DNA of 64,000 nucleotides from Candidatus Altiarchaeota archaeon (GTDB lineage Archaea > Altiarchaeota > Altiarchaeia > IMC4 > SCGC-AAA252-I15): contig JAZDIN010000025.1 of the NCBI GenBank assembly GCA_043804895.1, positions 64,001 to 128,000 on the forward strand, written 5' to 3'. Every line of letters begins with the position of its first letter. The first letter of the stretch is position 1. A program made the position numbers and the translations under genes. The notes under the pieces were generated by a model, which was given only the letters and a program-made list of their open reading frames with translations, was not told where the DNA came from and made no database searches. Shown piece after piece: positions 1-22,809 of this stretch.

Positions 1-1765
1 GGGATACGATTTCTCACTCAACTCAAATGACCCGAATGAGCAATTACCCCTTATCAAGAGGGTATTGGATAAGGAGTATCTCACCAATGACTGGTATGTA
101 AACAGCTCTCAGGCATTTTCTATACGGTCCTACTACACATACGTGGTCGCTTTTTTCCCCGAATTCATCGGGCTGGCTAATGTGTACTTCATACTCTACT
201 TACTGTCCTATTCACTCACAATCTATGCTTCCTATCGCATATCCAAAATGATGCTAAAGGACAACCTTGCAACACTCCTAGTCATGTTCATGGTAATCTT
301 CGGACCAAATGCTTCCCTTGGCAGCTTCAGACTAGTGGAATGGGAGTTCATACCAAGGTCGCTAGCTAACCCCCTGATACTCTTAGGGATATATTTCATC
401 CTCAATGGTAGTTTGCCCGTTTCCGGATTCCTATTCGGCCTTGCAAGCATATTCCACCCGTCTATGGGCATACTAATGGGTGTGGTGTTCTTGACATACC
501 TACTCTTTAATGCGCGAAGTATCGGGCTTCGTGAAGTCCTAAAATCATCGGCATGTTTTATAGTGGTCAGCCTCTTCGTCATAATCCCAACAATACTCCT
601 GGGCTCATCGGTTTCAGACCCGGAGGCCATTGCCATATTTACTAAGGTGGTTAGTCCTCACATCTTCTTCCCCACATACTTCGGGTTAAATCAGTACCTA
701 ACGTTCATGTCACTTGCAGCTTTGGTCGCACTCGCAATAAAATATGGATCTAAGCTTGATAATACTAAGGCCGCATTTTCTTTGATTGCACTTATTTTAA
801 TGCTTGCATTAACTGGCGCATTTTTCACGGAAATCGTTCCATTGCCTTGGATTTACATATTCAACCTCTTCAGGCCAATGCAGTTCGCCTACCTATTTGG
901 ATTCATATTTGTCTCTGGTTTTCTGGCGCATGAAATTAATCGCTCGACAAGTCCGGTCAATCGGATAATCCCCCTCGCCGTTGCATCTTCATTTGCAGCA
1001 TCTTATGTGATGTCTGCCACCACGATACTCTACCTTGTGTATGTTAAGTACCTCAGGAACAGGATAGAATCATTAGCCCCGAAAAAAGCATTGGTTGGAA
1101 TAGTAGCTGTGTTAGTTCTAGCTACTGCATCCATTACCATATACCTGTTCCATCTAGAAGGGTCGTCCTTATATTTAAATTTGTCAAAGACATTGCGTCT
1201 TTTGGGCATATTTGTCTTTTTAGCATCTGCCTCTTCAAAGGTTATCGTATCGTACTCTAAACGTGTAATGGATGGGTACATAGAACATTTAATATCGATA
1301 TTCATCGCCATGTTAGTACTATTCTCCGTATACCAGTCTGGTGGTCTAAGTACTGAAAGAATGCCGCGCGATCCAATGACAGCCAACCTTTATCAATGGG
1401 TAAAGGTCAATACACCCAAGGATGCGGTTTTTATAATACCCCCACACCTATATACATTCCGCATTGGAGCTTCTAGAGCGGTTTTCGCCGATTCATTTTC
1501 AAGGCCTTTCACTGATGAAGGTATTATCGACTGGAGCAGCAGAATGAAGCAGTTTGCAAAAAACTTCGACACGAGGTTAGGCTATGACCTCTCCAATGAC
1601 TTGAAAGCTGGTTACAACTCAACAAACACCTTAGAATTTGAGCGTATTGGAAAAACGTACGGTGCGTCCTACGTACTTACTGAAAAACCGAAAGTGCTCG
1701 AAATTGATCCGGTATTTGAGAATGAAAAATACGTACTCTACAATCTAAGCCAATATTCAAACTAA
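1..1765 (+). CDS. Polytopic membrane protein, GT-C-like/DUF6798-like putative glycosyltransferase (5' partial)
   Basis: Frame is open from base 2 (GYDFSLNSND..EQLPLIKRVLD..YLTNDWY). About 12 TM helices, then a C-terminal soluble domain (WVKVNTPKDAVFIIPP..FRIGASRAVF..YGASYVL). Confidence 0.6.
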   Translation, partial: GYDFSLNSNDPNEQLPLIKRVLDKEYLTNDWYVNSSQAFSIRSYYTYVVAFFPEFIGLANVYFILYLLSYSLTIYASYRISKMMLKDNLATLLVMFMVIFGPNASLGSFRLVEWEFIPRSLANPLILLGIYFILNGSLPVSGFLFGLASIFHPSMGILMGVVFLTYLLFNARSIGLREVLKSSACFIVVSLFVIIPTILLGSSVSDPEAIAIFTKVVSPHIFFPTYFGLNQYLTFMSLAALVALAIKYGSKLDNTKAAFSLIALILMLALTGAFFTEIVPLPWIYIFNLFRPMQFAYLFGFIFVSGFLAHEINRSTSPVNRIIPLAVASSFAASYVMSATTILYLVYVKYLRNRIESLAPKKALVGIVAVLVLATASITIYLFHLEGSSLYLNLSKTLRLLGIFVFLASASSKVIVSYSKRVMDGYIEHLISIFIAMLVLFSVYQSGGLSTERMPRDPMTANLYQWVKVNTPKDAVFIIPPHLYTFRIGASRAVFADSFSRPFTDEGIIDWSSRMKQFAKNFDTRLGYDLSNDLKAGYNSTNTLEFERIGKTYGASYVLTEKPKVLEIDPVFENEKYVLYNLSQYSN

Positions 1766-3538
1766 TCTGTAGACGCTGAATCTCTCGTTCTCCCAGACGA
1801 GTTCACCAACTCCTCCCAATTTTTCCTTGTCGACATCCCTCAGACTACCATCCGACTGGGTGAAAATATAATAACTGACGTTCTGTGCCCTGGCAGTCTC
1901 AACTATCCTGTCCCACCCCTCATACGGCGGTATAACCGCCAGTAGTCCTGTGTAGAAGTTGACGCGTTGACCGTCCTCTGACATTATGATACTCCCTTCA
2001 GGCACTGTCTCTCCAATCATATTCATCGCCTTAAGGTCAGGCCTTTCAGATATTCTTACGCCTGAGAGTAATGCAGTCTGAGCGACCATAGAAAGTACAA
2101 TAACCGTTAAGAGTACACCCCTCCTCCCCACAATATATGCTGCTGCATATGCTAAAAATATTGGGGTTAAGGGGCTTAGGAAGTCCACGCTAACTCCGTC
2201 CGACTTCGGGTAGCCAGTCCACAATGGGCCCACAAAGCTGGAGAATGCTAGAACAAAAAACAGTAATGTGCCACTCACATGCCTTAGGTTGGATAGTATG
2301 TAAAGGATGGCGGCCGTGAAGGCCAATAAGCTAACTAGGTTCATAACAGAATTGCTCATAGTCCAAATAAACCCATACTCCTGCATCTTGTTCGGTGGCG
2401 GGACGTACGTTGTCACCATATTTATCAGCCGATACATCACGGCCTTCAATACCCCGAGAACACCGCCCCCCAACCTTTCAAGATAGGATGTTGGTGTTGG
2501 GGGGGTTAGTGACTGGTATTCATCCCACTTCGTCATGAACGGCACATACCTTGCCGTCGTATACAACGGATTGCCAAACAGGGTATAGTTTCTGACAAAC
2601 CACGGTGTCAACACAACAATGAAAATCAAAGCAGCCATAATATTCTCCCTCGCGAATATCTGATACTTATTCCTTATGGCCTGATAAACGACCACTGCAA
2701 TTATAAACCATACTGCCGTATAGTGCGTCAGATAAGCGAATGCGGCAGATAGTGCCGCATACGCACTGAAACCCCTACCCCTCACTGTGAAATAAACCAT
2801 CATCGTTACGAAAAAAGAAACCATTACTCTCGGTTCAAGCTCTATAGAACGCGAGATAAGGAAAAAATTCACAGAAACCAGCAATCCACTTATCCACCCT
2901 ACCTCATGATTGAACAGCCTAGTTGCCAGAAGATAAATACCTAATACCAGGAAAACCCCGAAGAATACATTAATTGAGACTGCTGAGGCGTAGTCTACTC
3001 CATTAAACACCATGCCAAGAGCGTGCAGAAAATCCTGAAGTGGTGGCCTATAATTGCCAGGAAACGGGAATCTAGTGTATGGTGTCCAGTAATTGTCTAT
3101 AACATCAGTTGTGAACCATTCAGCGGTGAGGAAGCTTCTAGCATAAGAATAGTGGGCGTATGAGTCGCCGACAACGGGATTGGGGTTTAGTTCAAACAAA
3201 GCTACTCTCAAGGCCAATGCCAATACCAGTACCACAATAAACTTATCTAATCCACTGCTAACTCCTGCCGCCTCCCGACGTTTGAGCCCCTCTGGCCTCC
3301 ACTTTCTTGCGGACAGATACACTACTACTGTGGCAAATGTAACCGCTCCCAACAGTGCATCGAACCCAAGCTGGACCCCAATGGCGTGAAGTACAAGGGC
3401 GCATGAACCGTACAAGAGGGTCGAAGCCAAGACTGCAGCACAGAACCGTTCGACAGCGTCAAGCCTCCTGTCAAGGCCAGACAGAACGTAACCGGGGGCA
3501 TAAAAGAACACCACTGTCCTTAGAAATTCTATTATCAT
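1757..3538 (-). CDS. GT-C fold membrane glycosyltransferase (ArnT/PMT_2, GT39/83-like)
   Basis: GDSYAHY, YRPPL and PWFVRNY..FGNP motifs with many TM segments. Likely start is ATG 3538 (ORF open to 3679). Confidence 0.75.
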   Translation of the reverse strand: MIIEFLRTVVFFYAPGYVLSGLDRRLDAVERFCAAVLASTLLYGSCALVLHAIGVQLGFDALLGAVTFATVVVYLSARKWRPEGLKRREAAGVSSGLDKFIVVLVLALALRVALFELNPNPVVGDSYAHYSYARSFLTAEWFTTDVIDNYWTPYTRFPFPGNYRPPLQDFLHALGMVFNGVDYASAVSINVFFGVFLVLGIYLLATRLFNHEVGWISGLLVSVNFFLISRSIELEPRVMVSFFVTMMVYFTVRGRGFSAYAALSAAFAYLTHYTAVWFIIAVVVYQAIRNKYQIFARENIMAALIFIVVLTPWFVRNYTLFGNPLYTTARYVPFMTKWDEYQSLTPPTPTSYLERLGGGVLGVLKAVMYRLINMVTTYVPPPNKMQEYGFIWTMSNSVMNLVSLLAFTAAILYILSNLRHVSGTLLFFVLAFSSFVGPLWTGYPKSDGVSVDFLSPLTPIFLAYAAAYIVGRRGVLLTVIVLSMVAQTALLSGVRISERPDLKAMNMIGETVPEGSIIMSEDGQRVNFYTGLLAVIPPYEGWDRIVETARAQNVSYYIFTQSDGSLRDVDKEKLGGVGELVWENERFSVYRLV

Positions 3539-3618
3539 TGGTCTGCTAAGACTATTGTTAAGTAATATATTTATCCTCAATCCAACGGTTTTTAGCATAC
3601 ACTGACATAGCATAAACC

Positions 3619-4398
3619 ATGGGTTCACCCGCAGGTAACGGCTGCCTAGTTGACCGAATCTTGAAGAAATGCGGGGCATTGGGCATTGTGGACTTGTGGG
3701 CTTCCACAGACAAGAAGTACATAGACCATCACGAGAATTTCCTGAACCTCACAGAGGAGGGGTACTCCGATGACCTCATAAAACATATGCGTGATGTCAG
3801 CGGACTTATTGGTGTGGACATAGGCTCCGGTGGCGGCGTGGTTGCAAATAGGCTGGCATCTTTGGGCGCGTCAGTCAATGTGATGGACATATCATTAAAC
3901 GCTGTGAGGCATGCTACGTCATCTGGTCGCGTTCTTGGGGTTCAGGCTAATGTAGAGCATATGCCCTACAAGGATGATGCGTTCGATTTCTGTGTCTGCA
4001 CGGATGTTGTGGAGCATGTGGTTGAATATCATCAGCTAGTTAGTGAGATACAAAGGGTATTAAAACGAAGTGGTGTGGCTTATCTAACAGTACCAAACGC
4101 GTACAGTTGCAAGAACTTACTTCTTGATCTCATATTTCCTATCCTCACAGGAGTATCTCGAAAGGTCACTGGCCACAAGCCTCAACTACCCTCCCGGGGC
4201 CATATAAACCTCTTCAGCAGGAAGAGCTTTGCAACCTTTTTGTCCGAGAGTGGTTTCATCATAGAGGCTGTTGAGGGCAGTAAGGTCAAGGATATCTCCA
4301 GGTACCGTCTTGTGGTGAATCCTCTATCAACTCTAGCTGGCTTTATCATACCCTCGATGGTGGTTGATGAGCTCATGTTCATGGTAACACCCGAATGA
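3619..4398 (+). CDS. Class I SAM-dependent methyltransferase
   Basis: VDIGSGGG, MPYKDDAFD, DVVEHV, RVLK.SG motifs. Start uncertain. Confidence 0.85.
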   Translation: MGSPAGNGCLVDRILKKCGALGIVDLWASTDKKYIDHHENFLNLTEEGYSDDLIKHMRDVSGLIGVDIGSGGGVVANRLASLGASVNVMDISLNAVRHATSSGRVLGVQANVEHMPYKDDAFDFCVCTDVVEHVVEYHQLVSEIQRVLKRSGVAYLTVPNAYSCKNLLLDLIFPILTGVSRKVTGHKPQLPSRGHINLFSRKSFATFLSESGFIIEAVEGSKVKDISRYRLVVNPLSTLAGFIIPSMVVDELMFMVTPE

Positions 4399-4448: not shown

Positions 4449-5159
4449 TTACCTTCGCCTACTCTTGTATGTCAACCTCAGCGCAAAAAGGCTCACATAT
4501 CGTATTCCCATCCGGATTAAGTTGAACTTTGTCTTTCCGAATCGCCTGTTGAAATAGGTCGTTGGTATCTCGCCGAGTTTGTAACCGTTCATATGGGCTT
4601 TTATCGCAAACTCTGGGCTGATGGAAAAGTCGCCTGCCTCAGGCATGGCGTGGTCGAAGACCTCCCTTTGAAATCCCCTATAGGCATTTGTTATGTCATG
4701 TATAGGTATCCTAAAAATCAACCTAGCAAGCCTTGTGTAAGTGGAGCCGTAAATCGCCTTATCAGTTCCGAGTTCCCCCCTTGAGCCGCCCCTCATGTAA
4801 CGGGAGGCCATCACCATGTCGTAGCCTCTGTCGAGTTTGCCGACCATCTCCCCTATTATGTCTAGTTTGTCTGACCTGTCTGCCATAACCCAGATTACGT
4901 ACTCTCCTCTTGAGCTTCTTGTGCCTTCAATCAGGGCGTATCCCATGCCATTATCTCCCCTCCTCCTGTGGATACACCTTATCCTGGGATTACTCTTAAC
5001 TAGTTTGTCGCATATTTCCGGTGTCTTGTCGCTGCTGTTGTCATCAACGATTACAATCTCCCAGTCATCATCTGAAATGACTCCCAATAAATTTTCAACA
5101 AGGGGTGTGAGGTTGTCATCCTCGTTGTAGGCTGGAATTATGACAGAATACTTCACCAT
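4449..5159 (-). CDS. GT2 polyprenol-phosphate glycosyltransferase (DPM1-like)
   Basis: SVIIPAYNE, VDDNSSDKT, MASRY, RRFGKTKF. Confidence 0.9.
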   Translation of the reverse strand: MVKYSVIIPAYNEDDNLTPLVENLLGVISDDDWEIVIVDDNSSDKTPEICDKLVKSNPRIRCIHRRRGDNGMGYALIEGTRSSRGEYVIWVMADRSDKLDIIGEMVGKLDRGYDMVMASRYMRGGSRGELGTDKAIYGSTYTRLARLIFRIPIHDITNAYRGFQREVFDHAMPEAGDFSISPEFAIKAHMNGYKLGEIPTTYFNRRFGKTKFNLIRMGIRYVSLFALRLTYKSRRR

Positions 5160-5164
5160 TCTAC

Positions 5165-6289
5165 TCACTTCTCGACGAGGTTCCTGTCCTCAAGCTCCTT
5201 CAGGGCATCTTGGCTTCTGTCTTCTGCCTCCTGTTTTGCGCCCCATTTCACCAGGTCTCTCATCCCGTCCTCGAACTTCACGTTCGGTTTGAAGCCTATC
5301 TTCCTTATCTTAGTGATGTCAGCGTAGCAGTGCCTTATGTCGCCTGCCCGGTATTTGTTCTTGATTTCAGGCTTGATTCTTTTGCCGTATAGCTTGGCAA
5401 ATGTTTCGGCTATGTGCAACACAGTGACTGGTTTGCCTGTGCCGACGTTGAACATCTCATAATCTGCCTTCCTGCTATCCAACACCAGCATGTTGGCTGC
5501 GACGATGTCCCTAACATCTATAAAGTCCCGGCTCTGCAGCCCGTCCTCATAGATGACTGGGGGGTTGTCGTTTTTTATATTGGATTGGAATATCGCGCAC
5601 ACTCCAGTGTATGGATTGGAAAGTGACTGCCTTGGGCCATATACGTTGAAATACCTCAAGGCAACGGATGGTATGCCATATGCTTTCCCAACGGACAGGA
5701 CCATCTCCTCCTGGTCGCGCTTGCTGACGGCGTAAACTGAAGTTGGCCTAAGCGGTTTATCCTCCGGTGTCGGGGTAGATATTGCCTCACAACCACAGCA
5801 TGGGCATCTCATCTCCCACTCATGCGATTCAAGCTGCTTCTGCTGCCGGTAGTCTGGTATTATCCTTCCACATTTGCTGCACTCGTACACGCCTTCACCG
5901 TATATGCTCATGGAACTTGCCACAACAATCTTTTTTATGTCGTATTCTCCATTCACTATCTCGTCGAGGAGAAGTCCAGTGCCCCTGCAATTGACGTCAA
6001 CATAATAGTCTATGAGGTACATGGACTGGCCTACCCCGACAGCCGATGCTTCGTGGAAGACGACATCAACATCTGATAAGGCGCGTTTTAGGTCGTCTCG
6101 GTTTCTAACGTCCCCCCCGATGAACTTGGCCTTCTGGTTCAAGTAATCTGGATTCTTCCGGTCTTTGCCATGGACTTGCGGGTCAAGGTTATCGAGTATC
6201 CTCACATCGTTTCCGCGTTTTATAAGTTCGTCGACTATGTGGCTTCCTATGAAGCCAGCGCCGCCAGTGACAAGAACAGAATGTTTCAT
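5165..6289 (-). CDS. NAD-dependent nucleotide-sugar epimerase/dehydratase with Cys-rich insert
   Basis: GGAGFIGS, YAVSK, RYFNVYGP; insert CSKC...CPCC. Confidence 0.9.
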   Translation of the reverse strand: MKHSVLVTGGAGFIGSHIVDELIKRGNDVRILDNLDPQVHGKDRKNPDYLNQKAKFIGGDVRNRDDLKRALSDVDVVFHEASAVGVGQSMYLIDYYVDVNCRGTGLLLDEIVNGEYDIKKIVVASSMSIYGEGVYECSKCGRIIPDYRQQKQLESHEWEMRCPCCGCEAISTPTPEDKPLRPTSVYAVSKRDQEEMVLSVGKAYGIPSVALRYFNVYGPRQSLSNPYTGVCAIFQSNIKNDNPPVIYEDGLQSRDFIDVRDIVAANMLVLDSRKADYEMFNVGTGKPVTVLHIAETFAKLYGKRIKPEIKNKYRAGDIRHCYADITKIRKIGFKPNVKFEDGMRDLVKWGAKQEAEDRSQDALKELEDRNLVEK

Positions 6290-9379: not shown

Positions 9380-9401
9380 CTGATTGAAATGGGGTGTTGG
9401 T

Positions 9402-10843: not shown

Positions 10844-11590
10844 ATGGCAACAGCCGACGACGTAAAGGATGCGAACAGGCGATTTTTCGACTTAGCAGCC
10901 GACGTCTACGAGGGTGTTGACAAACGGCGTGGCGATAAGGTTAGCAGATGGCTTGACGACGGCATAGGTGAGTTGAGTAAGAGAGCTACTGGTGGCGCGT
11001 TACTCGACATCGGATGCGGGACGGGATTTGTGATGCGAAAGTCAAATGGCAAGTTCAACCTCATAGTCGGCGTTGACATAAGCCCGAACATGCTAAAGCA
11101 GACTAATGTCGGTTATCCTGTCTGCGCTGACACCGATTACCTCCCATTCAAGGGCGGAGTCTTCGATGCCGCGGCGTCTGTGGCTGTGCTACATCACATA
11201 CTCGACCACAAGTCTATGTTCCAAGAAGCGCAGAGGGTCCTCAGGAAAGGTGGTGTATTCTACAGCGACCATGACATAGACTCCGAGTTCGTTAAAAAGT
11301 TCGGCTGGCTTGTAAGGTTGAGGCGGAGATTCTGCGACAATAGCATAGCCTATCTCAGGGCTAAAAAAGACCTCACCAAGGAACTGTATGAGAAATCAGA
11401 GATACACCACGACGGAGTTGACTCCCCTCTGCTCAAGACTCAACTCCAAGATGCAGGATTCTCAAAAGTGAAAGTCAGATACCACTGGCTCGGCCTAAAC
11501 ACAGCCCTGAATGTTATACTATCACTTCCCCCCCTCAAATATCTGCCTCACGGATTCGCACCGAACGCATCATTTTGGGCTGTAAAATGA
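10844..11590 (+). CDS. Class I SAM-dependent methyltransferase
   Basis: LDIGCGTG, VDISPNML, LPF..GVFD, VLHHI. Confidence 0.9.
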   Translation: MATADDVKDANRRFFDLAADVYEGVDKRRGDKVSRWLDDGIGELSKRATGGALLDIGCGTGFVMRKSNGKFNLIVGVDISPNMLKQTNVGYPVCADTDYLPFKGGVFDAAASVAVLHHILDHKSMFQEAQRVLRKGGVFYSDHDIDSEFVKKFGWLVRLRRRFCDNSIAYLRAKKDLTKELYEKSEIHHDGVDSPLLKTQLQDAGFSKVKVRYHWLGLNTALNVILSLPPLKYLPHGFAPNASFWAVK

Positions 11591-14945: not shown

Positions 14946-15847
14946 TTAAGCTGCCTCCTGATAAGCTGGTCTAAGAGTATGTTCTGGCTTCTTATGGAGT
15001 GTAGTATAAGGCCGATTGCTATGAACTGTATGCCAAGGATTATGAAGGAGAGGGATGCGATTAGGCTGAGCATCATCATCTGGCTGTATGGAGTCGACGT
15101 CAGTGAGAGAATCGATATTATGAGGCCAATTGTGAGGGACACTATCGACAGTATCGAGAACAGGAACATCGGCCTATAGTCCCTCAACAGGGTTATTATC
15201 GTCCATAGTATTATGAAGCCGTCACTGAAGGAGTCGAGCTTGGATTCGCTACCTTTCGGGCGGGACCTGTATCTTATCGGAACCTCCTTTATTCTGAAAT
15301 TCTCTATTAGGGTCCTTATCGTCAGTTCAGTCTCTATCTCAAAGCCACTTGATATAAGGTTAAGGTGTTTGGCAAGGTTCCGGTTCAACACCCTGTATCC
15401 AGAGAGCACGTCCTCAAGTTTCATGCCGAAGGAAGTGTTTATCATGGTGACTATAGCCCAGTTGCCAAAGACATGGAGCCTCTTCATCGAATCCGATTCC
15501 TTGTCCCCAATCCTTGAGCCTACTGTCATGTCACATTCGCCGTCCAAGACTGGCTTTAGAAGATTCTTAACGTCCTCTGCAGGGTACGTGTCGTCCCCGT
15601 CAACAAATACGTAGTAGTCTGCATCGATGTTGTCAAGGGCGGATTTCATCACGAAACCCTTGCCTCTGCGCGTTTCAGTCAGGACCTTGGCCCCGGCTTT
15701 CTTTGCAGCCTCCACAGTCCCATCGGTTGAGTTGTTGTTGTAGACTATTATGTCGGCGTCTGGAATCTCCCTCCTGAAATCCTTCACCACCTTTCCTATA
15801 CTCTTCTCCTCGTTCAAGGCCGGGATTATTACTGCTGTCCTCACCAT
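14942..15847 (-). CDS. GT2 polyprenol-phosphate glycosyltransferase with 2 C-terminal TM helices
   Basis: VIIPALNEE, VDGDDTYP, SGYR, GFEIETE, RPKGSESKL. Start ATG 15847 (the longer ORF runs into the upstream gene). Confidence 0.9.
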   Translation of the reverse strand: MVRTAVIIPALNEEKSIGKVVKDFRREIPDADIIVYNNNSTDGTVEAAKKAGAKVLTETRRGKGFVMKSALDNIDADYYVFVDGDDTYPAEDVKNLLKPVLDGECDMTVGSRIGDKESDSMKRLHVFGNWAIVTMINTSFGMKLEDVLSGYRVLNRNLAKHLNLISSGFEIETELTIRTLIENFRIKEVPIRYRSRPKGSESKLDSFSDGFIILWTIITLLRDYRPMFLFSILSIVSLTIGLIISILSLTSTPYSQMMMLSLIASLSFIILGIQFIAIGLILHSIRSQNILLDQLIRRQLK

Positions 15848-17226
15848 TTTTTCCAAAACATCGCAGGCAACGCATACCTTGCCGCACTCAAAATGTGCTC
15901 CAATTCCCCGGGGTTCCTGAGGGTCCTCAGCATATACTTGGGTCTCAGGTAATAAGACCTGACGCCCCTTTTCGCCCACTCCCTGATTTCCTCGTTGCTC
16001 ATGTGCGGGTAGCTAACTTCGCCGTTTTTTAGGCAGCCTCTTGAATTGAGCTCCGCATACATCGGGGCTGCCTTCGTGATTACTGGTATTGAGTACTGTA
16101 TTGTCTCCACGTCAAGCGAATTAGCCCAATTTACCGTGTTTTTTATCGTCTCCTCCGTCTCTCCTGGCAGTCCGACTACGAAGTCTGCGTGTATCTCAAG
16201 GCCAGCTTTTTTAGCGTCTTTCGTGAACCTCTCCATAGTCTCCCTTGTAATGCCTTTCCTTATGTTTTTCAGTATCGTCGGGTCAGCGGATTCATACCCT
16301 ACATGCAACACCCTACATCCCGCCTTCTTCATCTTCTCCATCGTCTCAAGCTTCAGGTCGCCTTTGGCGTAGCAGCCCCATGTCACATCCAGCTTTTGCC
16401 TTATCACCTCCTCAGAAATCTCATCAGCCCACCATCCTGGCAGCATGTCATCTTGGAAGAACTGCTCCTTAATCTGCGGGAGGTTCTCCTTCACCCATCT
16501 CATCTCCTCCACGACATTGCTGGCGCTCCTGTGCCTGTACACTCCGGCCTCAGTTAGGGTGTTAACCCACAGGCAGAAGGTGCACATACCCCACACGCAC
16601 CCGCGGCCTGTGAACATGTCAATGAACGGGTGCTTTTGCGCCACGACATGGTAGTTCCTGAAGTCCAGGTTCCTGCTGTAGAATTCGGTCACGAATGGGA
16701 AACTGTCTAAGTCTCCCTCAGGAATAGGAGGCCTCGGCTTGTTCTTAACGATTTTTCCGTTCCTCCTCCACATCAACCCCTCGATTTCAGCCGAGTTTTT
16801 GCCTGCAGCCAGGTCCCGTATGGTGTAGTCGAACTCACCGTATGCGACGTAGTCTATCTCATCAGAGGAGTTCATGACAGCGTCCGTGTCAATCGTAACC
16901 CAAGGGCCTGCGTAGACGATTCTCGAGCCAGTCTGCGACTTTATCTCATCGGCCAGTTTGGAGTCGTCTTTGAGGCTTCTCGTCGAACTATACAGTAGCG
17001 TCAAATCAGGCGATAACTTCTTAGCCTTCTCAAGTACCTGTTCAGGCGTCAGGTTCTCTGGTGGGGCGTCGACAAGCTTGACATTATGTCCCTCACGTTC
17101 AAGCAGGGCTCCGCAGTATCCGAGCCATATGGGGTACCATTGCGTGCCTGAGATTGACACTCCTTCACATCGCGCGTTCCGCATGAAATACTTCACGTAC
17201 GGCGGATTCAGTAACAAGACATCCAT
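15841..17226 (-). CDS. B12-binding-type radical SAM protein, HpnJ/calditol-synthase-like
   Basis: LLNPP..WYPIWLG, HPFIDMFTGRGCVWGMCTFCLW, VGYES, IHADFVVGLPGET. Family assignment is from recalled HpnJ signatures. Confidence 0.75.
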   Translation of the reverse strand: MDVLLLNPPYVKYFMRNARCEGVSISGTQWYPIWLGYCGALLEREGHNVKLVDAPPENLTPEQVLEKAKKLSPDLTLLYSSTRSLKDDSKLADEIKSQTGSRIVYAGPWVTIDTDAVMNSSDEIDYVAYGEFDYTIRDLAAGKNSAEIEGLMWRRNGKIVKNKPRPPIPEGDLDSFPFVTEFYSRNLDFRNYHVVAQKHPFIDMFTGRGCVWGMCTFCLWVNTLTEAGVYRHRSASNVVEEMRWVKENLPQIKEQFFQDDMLPGWWADEISEEVIRQKLDVTWGCYAKGDLKLETMEKMKKAGCRVLHVGYESADPTILKNIRKGITRETMERFTKDAKKAGLEIHADFVVGLPGETEETIKNTVNWANSLDVETIQYSIPVITKAAPMYAELNSRGCLKNGEVSYPHMSNEEIREWAKRGVRSYYLRPKYMLRTLRNPGELEHILSAARYALPAMFWKKW

Positions 17227-17318: not shown

Positions 17319-18038
17319 TCATCTTAACCTTAGGATTTTGGCAACCCTTGAAAGGAACCCTAAGGCGAGGACTCTCGAATATCCTGGGCCTATGTTCATG
17401 TAGTTGAGCTTTGACTTTCCCTGCCTGCGGTCGACGTAGCTGATGGGTATCTCGCCTATTCTATAACCTTCTATCGTGGCTTTCACCACAAGTTCGGAGT
17501 GTATCTCAGGCCCCGTTGACTTCAGATTCAGGGATTCGAACGTTTTTTTGTGGAATCCCCTGTAGCCGCTTGTTATGTCAGCCACTTTGACACTGATGAG
17601 CGCTCTGGAGACTATGTTGTAGGTGCCTGATATAACATTCCTTGTGGTCCCCCTCTTGAGGTTACCCCCGCTCATGAACCTTGAACCAACTACCACATCA
17701 TGCTCCTTCAAACTATTAACGAAGTTTGCTATCTCCTTTGGGTCATGGCTTAGGTCAGCATCCATGAAAACCACCAATTCGTTTGATGCAACGCCGACAC
17801 CCTCCCTGAGTGCATTGCCGAGGCCATTTCTGACCTCTCTAGCAAGCACTTTAACATTCCCGTATACGGAGTTCATCTTCCGCGCCAGTTCTGGTGTCCC
17901 ATCAGTTGATAAGTCGTCCACGACAATAACCTCACCATGTAAGCCTGCAGCATCGAAAATCCTCTCTACCCTTGGTATCAGCTCTTTTATGTTTTCAGCC
18001 TCGTTTATGGTCGGTATAACAACTGAAACTGAGTCCAT
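17319..18038 (-). CDS. GT2 polyprenol-phosphate glycosyltransferase (DPM1-like)
   Basis: VIPTINE, VDDLSTDGT, MDADLSHDP, GSRF, DRRQGKSKL. Confidence 0.9.
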   Translation of the reverse strand: MDSVSVVIPTINEAENIKELIPRVERIFDAAGLHGEVIVVDDLSTDGTPELARKMNSVYGNVKVLAREVRNGLGNALREGVGVASNELVVFMDADLSHDPKEIANFVNSLKEHDVVVGSRFMSGGNLKRGTTRNVISGTYNIVSRALISVKVADITSGYRGFHKKTFESLNLKSTGPEIHSELVVKATIEGYRIGEIPISYVDRRQGKSKLNYMNIGPGYSRVLALGFLSRVAKILRLR

Positions 18039-18042
18039 ATGT

Positions 18043-18933
18043 TCAACCGCCAGCCTCCTTTATCCTCCCTAACCCCTCTGCCATACTGGTTTTTGGTTTC
18101 CAACCTAATGCGCAGAGTTTTGTGTTGTCTGAGCGTATATCCTTACTCTCCTTCCTCAACTTAGCTGAATCCAGATTAACCTCTGGTCTGCGTCCGTATA
18201 ATCCAGCCGCTGTCTTAACAACGTCGCCTAATTGCATGCTTTTTCCGCCGCCGACGTTGAAGATGTTTAATCCCCTGACTCGTTTTTCTATGAGTATCAT
18301 GTATGCGTCCACTAGGTCGTCTACGTATAGAAAGTCCCTCTTAACTGTGATGTTTCCCAACTTGAGTTTATTGCCTTCTGAAAGCTGATTTAAAAGTGTG
18401 GGTATGAAAAAGTCGCCCGCCTGTCCTGGCCCGTAGATATTAAACTGTCGAAGTATTATGAAAAATCCTCCCCGTTCCTCGTGGAATACTCTTATTAGGT
18501 CTTCAGCAGCCTTTTTAGACCTACCGTAGCTGTTCGTCGGATTTGTTGGGTGTTTTTCGTCAACAGGCAGATACTTCGGTTCACCATAAACCTTCGAGGA
18601 TGATGCGAAGATGTAATTCGCATTCTCGCACTTGGTATGGAACTTAAGCGTATTGTATGTTCCAATGACGTTTATATCGTACGTCTTAAGCAAATCTTCC
18701 TCTGCTTCGGGTATAAATGAAATTCCTGCAAGATGCACGACACAGTCTATGTCCAAGGGCAGGCTCCTGAAACTCCGGAAGTCCGATACATCAACACTGT
18801 GGTGTTCCACACCTGCCAATCCGGCACGCTTGATGTCGGCGCCGACAACTGCATACCCGCCCTCGACAAGGCGTTTGCACAGGTTGGCTCCTATGAATCC
18901 AGAGTAGCCGGTGACCAGAATGTTACCAGTCAA
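18043..18933 (-). CDS. NAD(P)-dependent nucleotide-sugar reductase/epimerase (Rmd-like)
   Basis: GYSGFIG, YGRSK, RQFNIYGPGQ, GNITVKRDF. Likely TTG start 18933 overlapping the upstream gene's end. Confidence 0.8.
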   Translation of the reverse strand: MTGNILVTGYSGFIGANLCKRLVEGGYAVVGADIKRAGLAGVEHHSVDVSDFRSFRSLPLDIDCVVHLAGISFIPEAEEDLLKTYDINVIGTYNTLKFHTKCENANYIFASSSKVYGEPKYLPVDEKHPTNPTNSYGRSKKAAEDLIRVFHEERGGFFIILRQFNIYGPGQAGDFFIPTLLNQLSEGNKLKLGNITVKRDFLYVDDLVDAYMILIEKRVRGLNIFNVGGGKSMQLGDVVKTAAGLYGRRPEVNLDSAKLRKESKDIRSDNTKLCALGWKPKTSMAEGLGRIKEAGG

Positions 18934-19993
18934 TCCTACCCCACCATTTATCCTTGTTTTCTGCGTAGTATTTGATGGTCTCCTTAACACTTTCCCTTCT
19001 GTCATGCCGGGGTATCCATCCTGTCTCTCTCCTCATCTTCGTATAATCCACTCCAAGCCTCATCAAGTCGGTCTTACCTGGTCTGTACCTCACTTTATCC
19101 TCCCTCACCTTGACAGTACCCCAATACCCTTCCTCCTGTCCACATTCTATTATGAATTTGGCCCAGTCGCCAATGCTAATGTCCTTGCCGTAGCCGTAGG
19201 AGTATGTCTGCCCTGGCTTCCCTTTGAGTGTCGCGTAGATGTGTCCTCTCACGCCATCTAGGACGTAGGTGAAGTCTCTCGTAGGCTTAAGTGCCCCCAA
19301 TAGCACCTCCTTCTTGTTCAGGGCCTGCGTTATAATTGTCCCTGTCACATACCTGGGACTCTGCCTTGGGCCGTAGTTGTTGAACATACGGGTTATAACC
19401 GTCGGCACGCCATAGGCGTTGTAGAAGTTCTTGCATAGGAAGTCTCCCGCGACTTTAGAGACTGCATAAGGGCTTTCGGGATTGATAGGGCTTCTCTCGT
19501 TGAATATGATTATGCCATCCTTGTTGAACGTGTACAGGTCTTTCATCTCCTCTACCATGTTGCCGAATTCTTCGCTCGTGCCTGCAAAGTCCATTTTCAA
19601 CAGGTCAAGGTCCTCATCGACTACCGATTGTAGGATGTTTAGCGTCCCGATGGTGTTCGCTTGGAATGTCTCATAAGGGCGCTGCCAGCTTTCCCCTACG
19701 TGTGCCTGCGCCCCAAGGTGGAAGATTATCGGCTTGTCTTTTGCCTCAGCCTTGAGCCTCCTGATAGTCAACCTCACTGACAAGGGGTCGGCTAGGTCTC
19801 CTCTGTGCACCTTGACTTTCCTCAGGAGATGCCCGATGTTCTTCATCTCCCCGCTTGATGTCGCCCTAATGAACACATGAACGTCGCTTCCGTATTCAAC
19901 AAGCTTCTCTGTCAGGTGGCTTCCCATGAAGCCGTCAGCTCCCGTCACAAGGATCGTCCTATCCCTCAACTCCCCCACAAGCCTGTCTTCCAT
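18923..19993 (-). CDS. NDP-sugar 4,6-dehydratase (GDP-mannose/dTDP-glucose 4,6-dehydratase family)
   Basis: GADGFMGSHL, GAQAHVGESW, GTSEE, YAVSK, RMFNNYGPRQ. Confidence 0.85.
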   Translation of the reverse strand: MEDRLVGELRDRTILVTGADGFMGSHLTEKLVEYGSDVHVFIRATSSGEMKNIGHLLRKVKVHRGDLADPLSVRLTIRRLKAEAKDKPIIFHLGAQAHVGESWQRPYETFQANTIGTLNILQSVVDEDLDLLKMDFAGTSEEFGNMVEEMKDLYTFNKDGIIIFNERSPINPESPYAVSKVAGDFLCKNFYNAYGVPTVITRMFNNYGPRQSPRYVTGTIITQALNKKEVLLGALKPTRDFTYVLDGVRGHIYATLKGKPGQTYSYGYGKDISIGDWAKFIIECGQEEGYWGTVKVREDKVRYRPGKTDLMRLGVDYTKMRRETGWIPRHDRRESVKETIKYYAENKDKWWGRIDW

Positions 19994-20147
19994 AACCAAG
20001 ATATTATTTTCCCCCGTTAAAATATAGCGGATAGGGAATACTTTGGAATTTCGGTTTTCCCTATCCAATATATCTAATAATCCTGGGGTTTGGTGAATTC
20101 TATTCTATGAAAGTTTAATTCTCAGGATTATTCGCTATAGCCAAAGT

Positions 20148-20495
20148 TCACTGGCCAAATCCTATGAGGGTGACACCCAGGATGATGAACGCTATCCCTG
20201 CCCACTTTAATGTAGTCATCCTCTCCCCAAGGTATTTTTGTGAGAGTACGCACACCCAGATGTAGCCTGTTGAGACAAGCGGGAAGAGCACCGAAAGTTC
20301 ACCGCCTTTTATGCCGATGACGTAGAAAACCGTGGATGACCCGTATATCAGCACTCCCTTCATCAGGTCGAAGTTCGTCAATATGGACTTGATGTTGGGT
20401 TTCAGCTTTCCTGCTCCTTTCTTGAAGTAGAGCGAGCCAAACGAGCCAACGAATGCTGCAAGCAAGACCATAGCTGCAGCCCACGCCTCTGTCAT
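20148..20495 (-). CDS. Small 4-TM DMT/EamA-type protein (ArnE/ArnF-like)
   Basis: 115 aa, GELSVLFPL, YLGERMT..KWAGI. Confidence 0.75.
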   Translation of the reverse strand: MTEAWAAAMVLLAAFVGSFGSLYFKKGAGKLKPNIKSILTNFDLMKGVLIYGSSTVFYVIGIKGGELSVLFPLVSTGYIWVCVLSQKYLGERMTTLKWAGIAFIILGVTLIGFGQ

Positions 20496-20860
20496 TTACC
20501 CCCCTCCGTGCTGCCGTAACCTATCAGGATGACTCCAACGACTATCGAGAATATCCCCGCCCATTTCAGGGGGTTCATGCTGTCTGTTGCGAAGAACATC
20601 GGTGACATGATTGCTACCCAGATGAAGTTCATAGCATATATCGGGTAAAGCACAGACAGCTCACCGTACTTTAATGAGACTACAAGTATCGCGGCGCTGA
20701 GGCCGTAGAGACAGTAACCGATTATTAGTGGTATGTTCGTTGCTACTGACATTATGTCAAGTACTGTGCTGTTTACTCCGGTCTTGATGAGTATCTGACC
20801 TGACGCTGCGAACAATGTGGATAGGAACACCAGCCCCATAGCCCATCGTCTAGTCTTCAT
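20492..20860 (-). CDS. Small 4-TM DMT/EamA-type protein (ArnE/ArnF-like), paralog of the downstream gene
   Basis: 122 aa, AASGQILIK, GELSVLYPI, KWAGI. Confidence 0.75.
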   Translation of the reverse strand: MKTRRWAMGLVFLSTLFAASGQILIKTGVNSTVLDIMSVATNIPLIIGYCLYGLSAAILVVSLKYGELSVLYPIYAMNFIWVAIMSPMFFATDSMNPLKWAGIFSIVVGVILIGYGSTEGGK

Positions 20861-21537
20861 CCCAAACCCAGCCTATATCTGTACAACCTATACAGGTGTC
20901 TGAGGTAGTTTATGTACTCCCCTAAGTTCAGTTTGCTTTCGCCAACCCTGCGGTCGCGGAAAATGTAAGGCACCTCAACGACTCTCCCATACTTCCCCTT
21001 TACCAATATCTCAAGCCCAATCTTGAAGCCGACTGCATCCAACTTTACACCCTCAATAACCTCCCTTCTGAGGAAGAAATATCCTGACATGCAGTCTCTC
21101 ACACCAGTTAGAGGTCTTGCAAGCATTTTCGCCCCCCTTGAGGTGAGTCGCCTCATAATAGGCCAGTTCTCGACTCCTCCTCCTTCAATGTATCGGCTTG
21201 CGAACACCATCCCCGCATCCCCATTCAGGATTGGCTGTATAAGTTTCGGAATAAGTCTCGGGGGGTGGCTGAAGTCAGCGTCCATGACACCGATTATCTC
21301 ACCTGATGATGCATTGAGCCCGTCAAGTATAGCCGAAGACAATCCCAGCTTACCTTTCCTGTGGATGACCTTAATCCCGTATGTGACAGCTAGCTGGTCC
21401 GCCAACTCCCCCGTCCCATCCGGGCTTCCATCATCTACCACGACGACTTCGACATCTGCATTCGAGAGTATGTCCTCTACAAGCCCCTTAAGGTTCTTCA
21501 CTTCATTGTATGTTGGCACGACGACTGAAGCACGCAT
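20857..21537 (-). CDS. Polyprenol monophosphomannose synthase (DPM1-like GT2)
   Basis: [36 protein letters not shown]. Confidence 0.9.
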
Positions 21538-22250: not shown

Positions 22251-22251
22251 G

Positions 22252-22809
22252 ATGGACAGAATATCAAAGGAGATTGAGGAAAGCGTTGTAGTGAAGAGAA
22301 CGCTCAAAGTAAAGGACATCGAGGAAGCAACCAAGCTGATAGTGGACGCACTCAAATCAAAGCGCAAGATTCTCCTTTGCGGAAACGGTGGAAGCGCCGC
22401 TGACTGCCAGCACATCGCAGGCGAATTCGTAGGCAGGTTCAAGAAGGAGCGGCAGGCCCTGCCTGCAATAGCGCTCTCGACTGACACGTCAATCCTCACC
22501 GCCCTCACCAACGACTACGGCGGAGACATAATATTCTCACGGCAGGTCGAGGCCCTCGGGAATGAGGGGGATGTGTTGGTTGCGATATCAACCAGTGGAA
22601 CCTCCTCCAACATACTCAAAGCAGTCGAGGCAGGAAGGAAGAAGGGGATGAAGGTCGTCGGATTCACAGGAGCCAAAGGCCAGAAACTGAAAAGCCTCTC
22701 AGACGCCTGTATCATGGTCGGCTCAGACGACACCCCACGGATACAGGAAGCCCACATCACCGCAGCACACATAATATGCGGACTGGTCGAGGAAAAAGTT
22801 GGTAACTAA
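22252..22809 (+). CDS. gmhA: D-sedoheptulose-7-phosphate isomerase (phosphoheptose isomerase)
   Basis: CGNGGSAADCQH, ISTSG.S, PRIQEAH. Confidence 0.93.
   Translation: MDRISKEIEESVVVKRTLKVKDIEEATKLIVDALKSKRKILLCGNGGSAADCQHIAGEFVGRFKKERQALPAIALSTDTSILTALTNDYGGDIIFSRQVEALGNEGDVLVAISTSGTSSNILKAVEAGRKKGMKVVGFTGAKGQKLKSLSDACIMVGSDDTPRIQEAHITAAHIICGLVEEKVGN

Follow-up and report, generated by a model that had tools for sequence, protein, structure and literature searches.

Does the radical SAM-rich DNA at the start of the window, by which we mean the whole 64,000-nucleotide stretch analysed, encode one integrated pathway that builds radical-modified sugars on a lipid carrier and exports them, as an earlier note had proposed? 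Positions 1-22809 make up the right-hand half of a hypervariable island of surface-glycan genes in an Altiarchaeota genome, which is 46.4 kb long and spans -23575 to 22809 in window numbering. The extent of at least 22.8 kb given in the earlier note stands, but its window coordinates truncate the feature: g1 begins 95 nt before the window, and glycan genes run on for 23.6 kb upstream of the window start. The left edge of the island is an NTP_transferase+HAD fusion at C25:40425 of the genome's own contig, and housekeeping genes lie past it. The archaeal host was confirmed by profile searches, which recovered Gins51, archease, RFC, archaeal flagellin and L21e.

Using Pfam and NCBIfam profile searches of 23 ORFs in positions 1-22809, called by a crude ORF rule, we reproduced all gene counts of that note: four radical SAM proteins (g7 with PF04055 and SPASM; g9, g11 and g15 of the B12 type, with PF02310 and PF04055), two class I methyltransferases (g3, g10), five SDRs (g5, g6, g8, g17, g18) and five GT2s (g4, g13, g14, g16, g21), four of them of the polyprenol-P type by AglJ or dolichyl-P-hexose-type best matches (g4, g14, g16, g21). 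The other components of the postulated carrier relay were also present, namely two GT-C proteins (g2 by its PMT_2 match, g1 by predicted fold) and two flippase types (g12, LPG_synthase_TM; g19/g20, ArnE/F-like but weak and under cut-offs), as were tal and gmhA (g22 and g23, each over its cut-off). The genes are as follows, with identities being those in relative G003.

g1: 1..1765, + strand, membrane glycosyltransferase with predicted GT-C fold (DUF6798), 619 aa
g2: 1757..3679, - strand, PMT_2-type GT-C (PF13231, 38.2 bits; about 9 crude TM segments)
g3: 3619..4398, + strand, class I SAM methyltransferase (Methyltransf_11, 71.7 bits; 46% identity)
g4: 4449..5168, - strand, short soluble GT2, polyprenyl-P-hexose synthase-like (PF00535, 116.6 bits; AglJ, PgfS and Dol-P-hexose models 59-64 bits, all under cut-offs; 67% identity)
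g5: 5165-6289, - strand, NDP-sugar SDR, epimerase/dehydratase family (PF01370/PF16363; 75% identity)
g6: 6307-7248, - strand, NDP-sugar SDR, epimerase/dehydratase family (PF01370/PF16363; 71% identity)
g7: 7375..8400 (ORF from 7336), + strand, radical SAM with twitch-like auxiliary domain (PF04055, 84 bits; SPASM, 29 bits)
g8: 8393..9379, + strand, HpnA-like/3-beta-HSD-like SDR (TIGR03466, 185 bits; cut-off 368)
g9: 9384..10799, + strand, B12-binding radical SAM of no named family (PF02310, 95.7 bits; PF04055, 91.9 bits)
g10: 10844..11590, + strand, class I SAM methyltransferase (Methyltransf_11, 74 bits)
g11: 11587..13014 (start refined; ORF from 11575), + strand, B12-binding radical SAM of no named family
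g12: 13011..13964, + strand, MprF-type flippase-like membrane protein (PF03706, LPG_synthase_TM, 126.6 bits; TIGR00374, 83.4 bits; both over cut-offs)
g13: 13953..14945, - strand, membrane GT2 with 3 C-terminal TM segments (PF00535, 94 bits)
g14: 14942..15847, - strand, AglJ-like polyprenyl-P-hexose synthase GT2 with 2 C-terminal TM segments (TIGR04182, 252.5 bits; cut-off 325)
g15: 15841..17226, - strand, B12-type radical SAM of an HpnJ-sister family, the cassette hub (PF02310 and PF04055; TIGR03471)
g16: 17319-18038, - strand, GT2 (Pfam/NCBIfam)
g17: 18043-19005, - strand, SDR (Pfam/NCBIfam)
g18: 18923-19993, - strand, 4,6-dehydratase-like SDR (Pfam/NCBIfam)
g19, g20 and g21: 20148..21537, - strand, ArnE/F-like small 4-TM pair (g19, g20; 71% identity) and short GT2 (g21; GT2 match, 125 bits)
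g22: from 21594, + strand, fructose-6-P aldolase/transaldolase, FSA/Tal (TIGR00875, 317 bits; 82% identity)
g23: 22252-22809, + strand, GmhA (TIGR00441, 211.8 bits; 75% identity)

The full g1 ORF (L009:3906-5765; Pfam DUF6798, 57 bits) is modelled with a GT-C fold, its AF2 model (pLDDT 87.5, pTM 0.90) having STT3, DPY19, ArnT (TMt 0.55), AglB and Emb as best Foldseek matches. The g19-g21 genes appear to be a polyprenyl-P-sugar synthase plus flippase set, with g19/g20 scoring 28-34 bits against the ArnE/ArnF models, under the cut-offs of 92-99, and 28 bits against EamA. Radical SAM density in the island is above chance: five of the 20 PF04055 matches of the whole genome fall within 19.2 kb (Poisson p = 5.7e-6 for a fixed window; about 5e-4 after correction for 82 windows). 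Three gene sets overlap or abut (g7-g12, g15-g14-g13 and g21-g20-g19), which we counted as translational coupling in favour of the reading set out below.

Comparison with relatives argued against a single integrated pathway. Same-genus genomes retain g3-g6 and g19-g23 at 46-82% identity, with a weak 27% match to g2, and lack g7-g15. Where g7-g18 would be, G003 has two unrelated ORFs; G001 holds, of the inserted modules, only g16-g18 (17319..19993; 50-74% identity), a separate three-gene module, though it is without g7-g15. The g2 homologues of these two relatives are 27-34% identical, G003 having the 27% match. In G006 about 39 kb of the island is replaced by about 6 kb, and g19-g21 (66-68% identity) adjoin a PMT_2 GT-C. 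Only 3 of 30 relatives carry a g15 orthologue, and g7 orthologues were confined to two of those three (G015 and G020). As judged from gene content, the island has two layers, a backbone common to close relatives and inserted modules, the main one being g7-g15.

The partners of g15 were surveyed in 80 loci chosen by two g15 motifs, one genome per species, with genes called by the crude ORF rule. The density of GT2 ORFs was 1.61 per 10 kb out to 2.5 kb from g15 homologues and 0.22-0.25 at 5-10 kb, an enrichment of about 7-fold in a sample whose related genomes are dependent. B12 radical SAMs (1.02 per 10 kb near versus 0.2-0.4 far) and methyltransferases (0.79 versus 0.1-0.27) behaved likewise. 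A membrane GT2 of the g13 or c4 type lay within 2.5 kb in 40 of the 80 loci (25 of the 48 with full flanks), and in 22 full-flank loci no GT2 cluster came that close. The c4 GT2 resembles PgaC/NodC synthases (66-77 bits), not HpnI, so the substrate could be a polymer instead of a lipid. Within 3 kb, 18 of 48 large membrane ORFs, from 17 loci, matched GT-C Pfam families over cut-offs; in the Pfam scan of membrane ORFs, 5 of 47 were clearly other than GT-C and 22 of 47 had zero family matches. Genes of the g15 family thus neighbour membrane sugar-transferases in many bacteria and archaea, and their linkage to glycosyltransferases holds across domains. Homologues of g15 never had g1, g2, g19 or g22 alongside them, and g23 was there in only 2 of 80 loci, which again speaks against one pathway.

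This distribution bears on an alternative that we consider unlikely, in which soluble nucleotide sugars would be the substrates of the radical SAMs, ahead of transfer, and the proximity of these enzymes to glycosyltransferases would only reflect a shared glycan role. Free sugars are the substrates of GenK, AprD4 and DesII. Among solved proteins, those nearest to g9 and g11 include AprD4 (59-73 bits), and the nearest to g7 is BlsE (53 bits), both enzymes having soluble sugar substrates, and five SDRs and heptose genes share the island. However, ordinary NDP-sugar SDRs are flat around g15 homologues (0.09 per 10 kb close by and 0.10-0.31 at greater distance) where membrane GT2s are enriched, no nucleotidyltransferase was found to belong among the conserved cassette members, sister-clade fusions involve membrane lipid enzymes, and the PDB matches are weak and mainly over the common core.

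Other cassette members recur with g15. A syntenic g7-g8-g10-g15 set was found in 11 bacterial loci; orthologue-level g7 matches (334-440 bits) occurred in 11 bacterial loci, with a g8-type gene adjoining in all 11. Strong matches to g9 (350-441 bits; L026, L029, L075, L080, L087) and g11 (367-457 bits; L036, L088, L083) were recovered, L026 additionally holding a WecA-like GT, a GT4 and a PMT_2. The g10 and g13 families were each seen in 21 of 80 loci and g14, in which the ATG start codon at 15847 overlaps the stop codon of g15, in 25; g12 homologues adjoin g15 and g13 homologues in 6 loci. Going by these occurrences, g7-g15 is one version of an uncharacterised, apparently laterally shared cassette of bacteria and archaea.

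None of the four radical SAMs reached the NCBIfam cut-off of a tRNA, cofactor, core-lipid or RiPP family, in keeping with the sugar role proposed in the earlier note. The best matches of g9 were HpnJ (190 bits) and Sden_1168 (181), and g11 scored 186 against BchE and 160 against HpnJ, all under cut-offs. Each of the 8 g7 family members compared has a CX3CX2C motif and no more than 3 conserved Cys in its C-terminal part. In our view it is very unlikely that the block acts on a non-sugar target, for example a peptide or isoprenoid lipid chains, and lies in a glycan island only incidentally. Passages of PMC13459092 and PMC9204698 describe B12 radical SAMs that methylate hopanoids, GDGTs and peptides, and several bacterial loci have 6-8 consecutive radical SAMs, as RiPP clusters do. 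Against this, the match of g7 to GDGT-MAS is only 31 bits, the cassette is common to bacteria and archaea, whose core lipids differ, and glycosyltransferases are its constant partners.

The g15 protein scored 373.9 bits against the HpnJ model TIGR03471 (cut-off 577.6; second-best family 116 bits). In trees built without Cds, PtmC, MoeK5 and Fom3, the g15 clade (support 100/100) was sister to the true HpnJ clade (96/89), with 36-38% identity between g15 and true HpnJ. By phylogeny, the family is an unstudied sister of HpnJ with its own motif, CX4CX2C in 64 of 64 rows versus CX3CX2C in true HpnJ. Sister-clade proteins fuse the radical SAM to GT2/GT21, MGDG synthase or CDP-alcohol phosphatidyltransferase, the last two in HpnJ-clade members. 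These partners all act on membrane-lipid head groups, and the g15 family probably remodels a sugar hanging on a membrane lipid. Passages of PMC13459092 and PMC9092360 present HpnJ function as defined only by genetics. Our literature search found no paper describing this HpnJ-sister enzyme and its glycosyltransferase partner.

HpnJ kinship also raises a possible, though doubtful, alternative in which the end product is a membrane glycolipid: g13 would glycosylate archaeol, g15 contract the hexose to a cyclopentitol ether, methyl groups come from g9, g11 and g10, and g12 flip the lipid. Such a contraction is proposed for HpnJ and the calditol synthase Cds, and PMC9092360 describes Cds as believed to work once the sugar is on the lipid. 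The sister placement, the HpnJ-clade fusions, the MprF-type flippase domain of g12 and the dominance of glycosidic archaeols in Ca. Altiarchaeum membranes (PMC13003381) are in keeping with this, and ring contraction would yield an isomer, so mass alone would probably miss the product. However, g15 lies outside the HpnJ clade with a different cluster motif, and no HpnI/HpnK equivalent was found, g13 scoring 143 bits against MftF (cut-off 280) but only 39 against HpnI and the genome having no YdjC. The GT-C neighbours and polyprenyl-P-type g14 fit a transferable donor, and a carbocycle could not be transferred. The g15 family is also frequent in CPR and DPANN, whose genomes are reduced, and sequence networks place HpnJ together with the C-methylases Fom3 and MoeK5 (PMC9204698).

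The reading that we favour, at about even confidence, is a two-layer island in which g7-g15 may tailor a lipid-bound sugar before flipping and transfer. In the backbone, GT2 g21 would make a polyprenyl-P-sugar, the small pair g19/g20 flip it and a GT-C transfer the sugar outside the cell, alongside NDP-sugar SDRs and the tal and gmhA genes for heptose precursors. In the cassette, the membrane GT2 g14 and/or g13 would attach a hexose to a membrane lipid on the cytoplasmic side; g15, g9, g11, g7 with SDR g8, and methyltransferase g10 would tailor it; g12 would carry the product outward; and a GT-C would transfer or extend it. We infer the lipid-bound substrate, the step order, the acceptor and the chemistry; the last may be C-methylation or ring contraction, and the carrier may be polyprenyl-P or a glycolipid. 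Of the overall proposal that we set out to evaluate, the relay parts and the radical SAM-glycosyltransferase linkage survive, but the single pathway does not.

Several known systems resemble parts of this scheme. The HpnI-HpnK-HpnJ hopanoid branch (bacteriohopanetetrol glucosamine to cyclitol ether) likewise combines a B12-domain radical SAM, sister to the g15 family, with a membrane GT2, and has an MprF-type membrane protein and HpnA-like SDR nearby. It differs in that g15 is under the HpnJ cut-off and in a separate clade with another motif, and the host here is an archaeon whose cassette adds radical SAMs and GT-C neighbours; HpnI (39 bits), a YdjC deacetylase and squalene-hopene cyclase were sought in the genome and not found.

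Homologues of Cds are reported mainly from acidic sites. Cds of Sulfolobus acidocaldarius, also an archaeal radical SAM, is believed to remodel a hexose head group attached to lipid (PMC13459092 and PMC9092360), much as we propose for g15. The best Sulfolobus acidocaldarius match to the HpnJ model, in a comparison made without the Cds sequence itself, was far weaker (E between 1e-40 and 1e-60 in controls) than that of g15 (1e-111).

BlsE (cytosylglucuronate decarboxylase) and MoaA-type twitch radical SAMs share with g7 a core plus single auxiliary-cluster domain. BlsE acts on a sugar and is the best solved g7 match (53.5 bits), but the aligned region is confined to the core (residues 45-211), the conserved C-terminal Cys of g7 number just three, and g7 reached no NCBIfam family cut-off. 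MoeK5, a B12 radical SAM C-methyltransferase like Fom3, methylates a sugar of a lipid-linked intermediate. A stringent sequence-similarity network places both together with HpnJ (PMC9204698), but they come from antibiotic pathways, not cell-envelope islands, and our comparison was made without their sequences.

Our literature search found no description of radical SAM tailoring of carrier-bound sugars. Lipid-carrier glycosylation by three-component sets is known from ArnC/ArnD/ArnE-F/ArnT and Haloferax AglD-AglR-AglS, ArnD being the carrier-bound tailoring step of the Arn pathway. The island shares with these a polyprenyl-P GT2, a small flippase pair, a GT-C and putative tailoring on a carrier-bound sugar; it differs in that its ArnE/F matches are weak and in that the tailoring proposed here would be radical SAM chemistry.

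Thirty ORFs of the window were scanned against Pfam, and the 23 within 1-22809 (g1-g23) were also searched against the 18,950 models of NCBIfam. These scans recovered each item that the earlier note had counted in this stretch.

7336-8400, plus strand: g7, radical SAM core with a SPASM-type match
9384-10799, plus strand: g9, B12-binding domain and radical SAM core
11575-13014, plus strand: g11, B12-binding domain and radical SAM core
15841-17226, minus strand: g15, B12-binding domain and radical SAM core
Class I methyltransferases: g3 and g10
SDRs: g5, g6, g8, g17 and g18
GT2s: g4, g13, g14, g16 and g21

The best-scoring models for g4, g14, g16 and g21 were of the AglJ or dolichyl-phosphate-hexose type. 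As g1 matched only DUF6798 in Pfam, its homologues were gathered for modelling (2275 at E <= 0.001, with 60 aligned), and nearly all of the top 40 Foldseek matches to the predicted structure (pLDDT 87.5, pTM 0.90) were GT-C enzymes (STT3, DPY19, ArnT, AglB, Emb, ALG9/12 and PglB). D55, which is invariant across the 60 aligned sequences, is a candidate for the acidic residue of the first outer loop. On this modelled fold for g1 and a Pfam PMT_2 match for g2 (38.2 bits), both proteins are predicted members of the GT-C glycosyltransferases. The putative flippase g12 passes the cut-offs of MprF-type models (PF03706, 126.6 bits against 33.4; TIGR00374, 83.4 bits against 43.2), while g19 and g20 form a small ArnE/F-like pair with weak scores (28-34 bits against cut-offs of 92-99). 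Candidates for all three parts of an Arn/Gtr-type three-component system are present, namely the GT2 g21, the weakly ArnE/F-like g19/g20 and the GT-C proteins g1/g2, and in G006, a relative from another genus, such parts adjoin one another. Two precursor enzymes pass equivalog cut-offs: g23 on GmhA (TIGR00441, 211.8 bits against 209.45) and g22 on FSA/transaldolase (TIGR00875, 317.1 bits against 245.95).

Archaeal host markers lie 3' of this region (Gins51, archease, RFC, archaeal flagellin and L21e). Elsewhere in the window, three ORFs of 328, 494 and 326 aa (25752-26738, 26779-28263 and 29948-30928) lie between archease, PGM/PMM and RFC and have no Pfam match. A minus-strand run at 43716-47454 encodes three HAD hydrolases, an iron-containing alcohol dehydrogenase and a metallo-beta-lactamase-fold protein. 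Two adjoining ORFs at 59617-60643, of 173 and 167 aa, both align to the first half of the profile for the ArsP_1 permease, and may represent a split or duplicated permease.

Radical SAM matches number 20 in the 1.58-Mb genome (71 contigs, 88.7% complete), and five of them fall within 19.2 kb here; with the number of windows roughly corrected for, such clustering has a chance probability of approximately 5e-4. Three of the enzymes score over the cut-offs of both PF02310 and PF04055 (g9, 95.7 and 91.9 bits; g11, 64.6 and 88.7 bits; g15, 50.5 and 78.6 bits) and are predicted to be B12-binding class B radical SAMs. g9 and g11 fall below every family cut-off, their best models being HpnJ, Sden_1168 and BchE at 160-190 bits, and their nearest solved relatives are AprD4, the unnamed entry 9ccb, OxsB and TokK. 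g7 scores 29.0 bits on SPASM PF13186 (cut-off 21.5) and has a canonical CX3CX2C motif. Since just three C-terminal cysteines (269, 287 and 322) are conserved, in 8 of 8 members, g7 is twitch-like and not a full SPASM protein. Among solved structures it matches the sugar decarboxylase BlsE best, with 53.5 bits confined to the core. For g7, g9 and g11 alike, the matches to solved structures are too weak for assigning chemistry.

The best NCBIfam match of g15 was HpnJ (TIGR03471) at 373.9 bits, below the cut-off of 577.6, with the next family at 116 bits. True HpnJ proteins of Acidobacteriota score 663-805 bits and were found in 9 of 81 genomes (a tally that counts G059, the sequence of which was left out of the comparisons). 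In a careful tree of 40 rows (support given as ultrafast bootstrap/SH-aLRT; Cds, PtmC, MoeK5 and Fom3 are absent from our trees), the g15 family formed its own clade (100/100), sister (96/89) to an HpnJ clade that was itself supported at 100/100, and a third clade joined these two at 100/98. The other B12 radical SAMs of the same genome, g9 and g11 included, fell outside all three. g15 shares 36-38% identity with true HpnJ. Its cluster-binding motif, CxWGxCxFC, has the spacing CX4CX2C in 64 of 64 g15-family rows (the L010-L089 homologues and window 15841-17226), and the spacing is CX3CX2C in 8 of 8 true HpnJ proteins and in g9, g11 and the paralogues examined, which makes this one-residue insertion a handy signature of the family. 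The candidate identity of g15 as HpnJ proper was rejected on its score, its position outside the HpnJ clade, its motif and a context that lacks hpnI, hpnK and squalene-hopene cyclase. Neither a squalene-hopene cyclase (SQHop_cyclase_C) nor a YdjC deacetylase was found in the 88.7% complete genome, and none of five cassette-bearing genomes had a true HpnJ over the cut-off. Thermotoga maritima and Sulfolobus acidocaldarius each have a protein matching the HpnJ model at E <= 1e-40, and neither has one at 1e-60.

A search among longer proteins returned 19 matches of 823-1034 aa. The additional domain was a CDP-alcohol phosphatidyltransferase in nine, and an MGDG synthase, a GT2/GT21 and methyltransferase domains in one each; two held inteins, and for five only radical SAM and B12 domains were listed. 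In the tree, the phosphatidyltransferase and MGDG fusions sat within the HpnJ clade, and the GT2 and methyltransferase fusions in the third clade. The HpnJ-clade fusions (P0274-P0284 and P0288) comprise nine clusters with the phosphatidyltransferase, of at most 35 member sequences each, or carry the MGDG-synthase domain. Their domain composition hints that phospholipid or glycolipid head groups, outside hopanoid pathways, may likewise be substrates of HpnJ-type enzymes. Each branch of the superfamily is thus tied to enzymes that build the polar head groups of membrane lipids; since the fusions lie outside the g15 clade itself, their support for g15 is indirect.

Of the 8000 candidates scored, at least 5768 proteins matched g15 at E <= 1e-10, and the best homologues, which are both bacterial and archaeal, are 44-53% identical. 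An alignment of 17 sequences served to collect 80 loci, each with flanks of at most 10 kb; these were chosen by two g15 motifs, and as related genomes are among the sources they do not count as independent. The bacterial sources were Planctomycetota, Omnitrophota, Patescibacteria/Saccharibacteria, Chloroflexota, Myxococcota and Acidobacteriota, and the archaeal ones Altiarchaeota, Aenigmatarchaeota, Woesearchaeota, Bathyarchaeia and Methanophagales. Genes were called by a crude ORF rule that is error-prone in high-GC loci, and TM counts are likewise crude. When these ORFs were searched with the 23 window proteins, homologues of g9 (35 of 80 loci), g7 (34), g13 (34), g10 (30), g14 (25), g8 (21) and g11 (15) recurred; g23 had homologues in 2 of 80, and g1, g2, g19 and g22 in none. 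A jackhmmer search likewise found no homologue of g1 in the 80 loci. Orthologue-level g7 (334-440 bits) was present in 11 bacterial loci, all 11 of which also encode g8 (160-276 bits) and ten a separate g10 gene; in the other, L088, the methyltransferase and a B12 radical SAM form one fused protein. One Omnitrophota locus, L026, reads GT4, WecA-like GT, membrane GT2, g7-type, g9-type, g11-type, another radical SAM, g8-type, g10-type, g15-type and PMT_2, a gene set nearly identical in kind to that of the window.

Clustering of the 1050 ORFs of the 80 loci into partner families gave B12 radical SAMs of the g9/g11 type in 36 loci, a membrane GT2 of about 420 aa with four TM segments that is absent from the window (cluster c4) in 29, short GT2s in 28, g13-type GT2s and g10-type methyltransferases in 21 each, and g8-type SDRs in 14. 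Neither GT2 partner could be equated with HpnI: c4 scored best on PgaC/NodC (66-77 bits) and had no HpnI match, and g13 reached 39 bits against a cut-off of 310. As an internal control, gene densities near to and far from the g15 homologue were compared. GT2 density was 1.61 per 10 kb within 2.5 kb versus 0.22-0.25 at 5-10 kb, with a similar fall-off for B12 radical SAMs, SPASM-type radical SAMs and methyltransferases. A c4-type or g13-type GT2 lay within 2.5 kb in 40 of the 80 loci (25 of the 48 with full flanks). Ordinary NDP-sugar SDRs showed no fall-off (0.09 near versus 0.10-0.31 further out); that soluble NDP-sugars are the substrates, a reading favoured by the five SDRs within 1-22809, appears distinctly unlikely to us.

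Large membrane proteins, defined as ORFs of at least 400 aa with at least six crude TM segments within 3 kb of a g15 homologue, numbered 48 in 39 loci. Pfam matches over the cut-off (PMT_2 on 14, STT3 on two, YfhO and GT87 on one each) placed 18 of them, in 17 loci, in GT-C families; five were clearly not GT-C, and 22 had no Pfam match. PMT_2-like relatives of g2 occurred in 15 loci, and g12-type flippase-like proteins adjoined g13 and g15 homologues in six, mostly of CPR bacteria. In L027 the g15 homologue is fused to a class I methyltransferase of a type that stands free beside g15 homologues in L019, L057, L061 and L064. The cassette associates specifically with membrane GT2s, methyltransferases and further radical SAMs, and often with GT-C and flippase-like proteins. 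The present locus is an archaeal, and unusually complete, example of this recurring and uncharacterised module. The paralogous B12 radical SAMs of the same genome (contigs C50, C31, C13, C17 and C52) had no adjoining GT2 or SDR of the window type, save a weak g4-like match on C52, and are uninformative as to this locus. A non-sugar substrate for the cassette enzymes seems improbable.

The window (C25:64001-128000) holds only part of the glycan island. g1 starts 95 nt before the window edge, and glycan genes also fill the 20 kb upstream, which encode a GHMP kinase, four GT4s, a Wzx-like flippase, two AsnB-type amidotransferases, a nucleotidyltransferase, a 4,6-dehydratase, a C-methyltransferase and the two halves of a split transketolase, between which lies a fifth radical SAM. 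In this last set (L008:16125-19120, contig C25:60125-63120), which ends shortly before the window starts, the transketolase N and C halves flank a non-B12 radical SAM and come after the nucleotidyltransferase, 4,6-dehydratase, C-methyltransferase and SDR genes. On its left the island is bounded by an NTP-transferase/HAD fusion at C25:40425 that adjoins a WecA/AglH-type transferase, with housekeeping genes beyond; together with the upstream glycan genes this sets the island at C25:40425-86809, or 46.4 kb. The fusion (L104:16425-17729, C25:40425-41729) is a 434-aa HddC-GmhB-like protein with NTP_transferase and HAD phosphatase domains, and, added to the GHMP kinase, tal and gmhA, it would make up a full NDP-heptose route, encoded at both ends of the island.

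As a right-flank anchor we used a LonB-like AAA protein (window 22895-24286), located in four same-genus genomes and one of another genus. The DNA beside it was fetched from three of these relatives (G001, G003 and G006), and every ORF was compared with contig C25. The same-genus G003 retains g3 (46% identity), g2 (27%), g4 (67%), g5 (75%) and g6 (71%), followed by two unrelated ORFs with neither a Pfam match nor TM segments, and then resumes with g19 (71%), g20 (71%), g22 (82%) and g23 (75%), lacking the whole of g7-g18. G001, also of the same genus, has g2 (34%), g6 (67%) and g16-g18 (50-74%), and lacks g7-g15 and g19-g23. In G006, g21-g20-g19 lie beside a PMT_2 protein and g6, followed directly by homologues of the far-left island, such that approximately 39 kb of the island is replaced by approximately 6 kb. 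Gene spacing mirrors these units: the minus strand carries three tightly coupled sets, g21-g20-g19, g18-g17-g16 and g15-g14-g13, with gaps of 154 and 92 nt between them, and on the plus strand g7-g12 form a single tight run convergent with g13. Gene content and spacing together indicate that the locus is a mosaic of modules, and the earlier note's reading of it as a single pathway was not borne out, since whole modules are absent or swapped in all three relatives. Such whole-module differences among close relatives are expected for surface structures under diversifying selection. Two small hairpins (window 20022-20073 and 20069-20139) lie at 20022-20139 within the 154-nt g19/g18 gap, a module border. 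Repeats sought at the bounds of the inserted block gave only short, chance-like matches, and no compositional step was seen at its edges (GC 0.43-0.50 in 1-22809, about 0.48-0.50 in the block and 0.48-0.53 downstream).

A g15 orthologue (49% identity, >520 bits) was found in three of 30 relatives, G015, G018 and G020, and in none of the four same-genus genomes; the match coordinates in G018 and G020 agree with loci L043 and L011. With a g15-family profile, four of 61 genomes of the phylum, including this one, scored >730 bits, and six more scored 362-462 bits. Among the relatives, g7 orthologues (44-45%) occurred in G015 and G020 only, and no clear g9 orthologue was found (best 40%). With orthologues in so few relatives the cassette is patchy; it behaves as an accessory module and was probably acquired laterally.

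Lipid-carrier glycosylation is well understood. The reading we favour, to which we give roughly an even chance, is that the cassette tailors a lipid-bound sugar destined for surface glycan. g14, which is AglJ-like with two C-terminal TM segments, and/or g13, which has three, would load a hexose onto a membrane lipid at the cytoplasmic face, where g15, g9, g11, g7/g8 and g10 would tailor it. g12 would flip the tailored product, and a GT-C enzyme would then transfer or extend it outside the cell.

That the product is a cyclitol-type glycolipid head group we consider unlikely. For g15 itself, ring contraction and C-methylation are the two candidate chemistries. In the sources cited here, ring contraction is proposed for HpnJ and Cds and never shown in vitro (PMC13459092, PMC9092360, PMC9204698). 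Since ring contraction on a polyprenyl phosphate would give a carbocycle that a GT-C enzyme could not transfer, it would fit a glycolipid end product, and as Ca. Altiarchaeum lipids are described as mostly glycosidic archaeols (PMC13003381), a glycolipid substrate is plausible. C-methylation by g15 would fit the donor-and-transfer logic of a tailored lipid-bound sugar, and agrees with the co-localisation of HpnJ with Fom3 and MoeK5 in sequence networks (PMC9204698). We put forward only tentatively, as a possibility somewhat doubtful in its entirety, the joint proposal that the g15 family and its partners perform radical C-C chemistry (carbocycle ring contraction, or C-methylation/branching) on lipid-attached sugars and that they form a cassette mobile between bacteria (Omnitrophota, Planctomycetota and CPR) and archaea (Altiarchaeota, DPANN and Bathyarchaeia).

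Our literature search returned no description of the cassette or of the g15 family, and no report of radical SAM tailoring of a carrier-bound sugar. If true, the proposal would imply carbocyclic or branched surface sugars of an undescribed kind in uncultivated anaerobes, and the first known radical SAM step on a lipid-carrier-bound glycan. Working out one member of this large family would let thousands of genes be assigned a function, and could explain unidentified envelope sugars or head groups of uncultivated anaerobes. The family occurs in bacteria and archaea alike, and no family stands closer to HpnJ, whose own chemistry remains unproven; knowing its function would also illuminate how HpnJ and Cds work.
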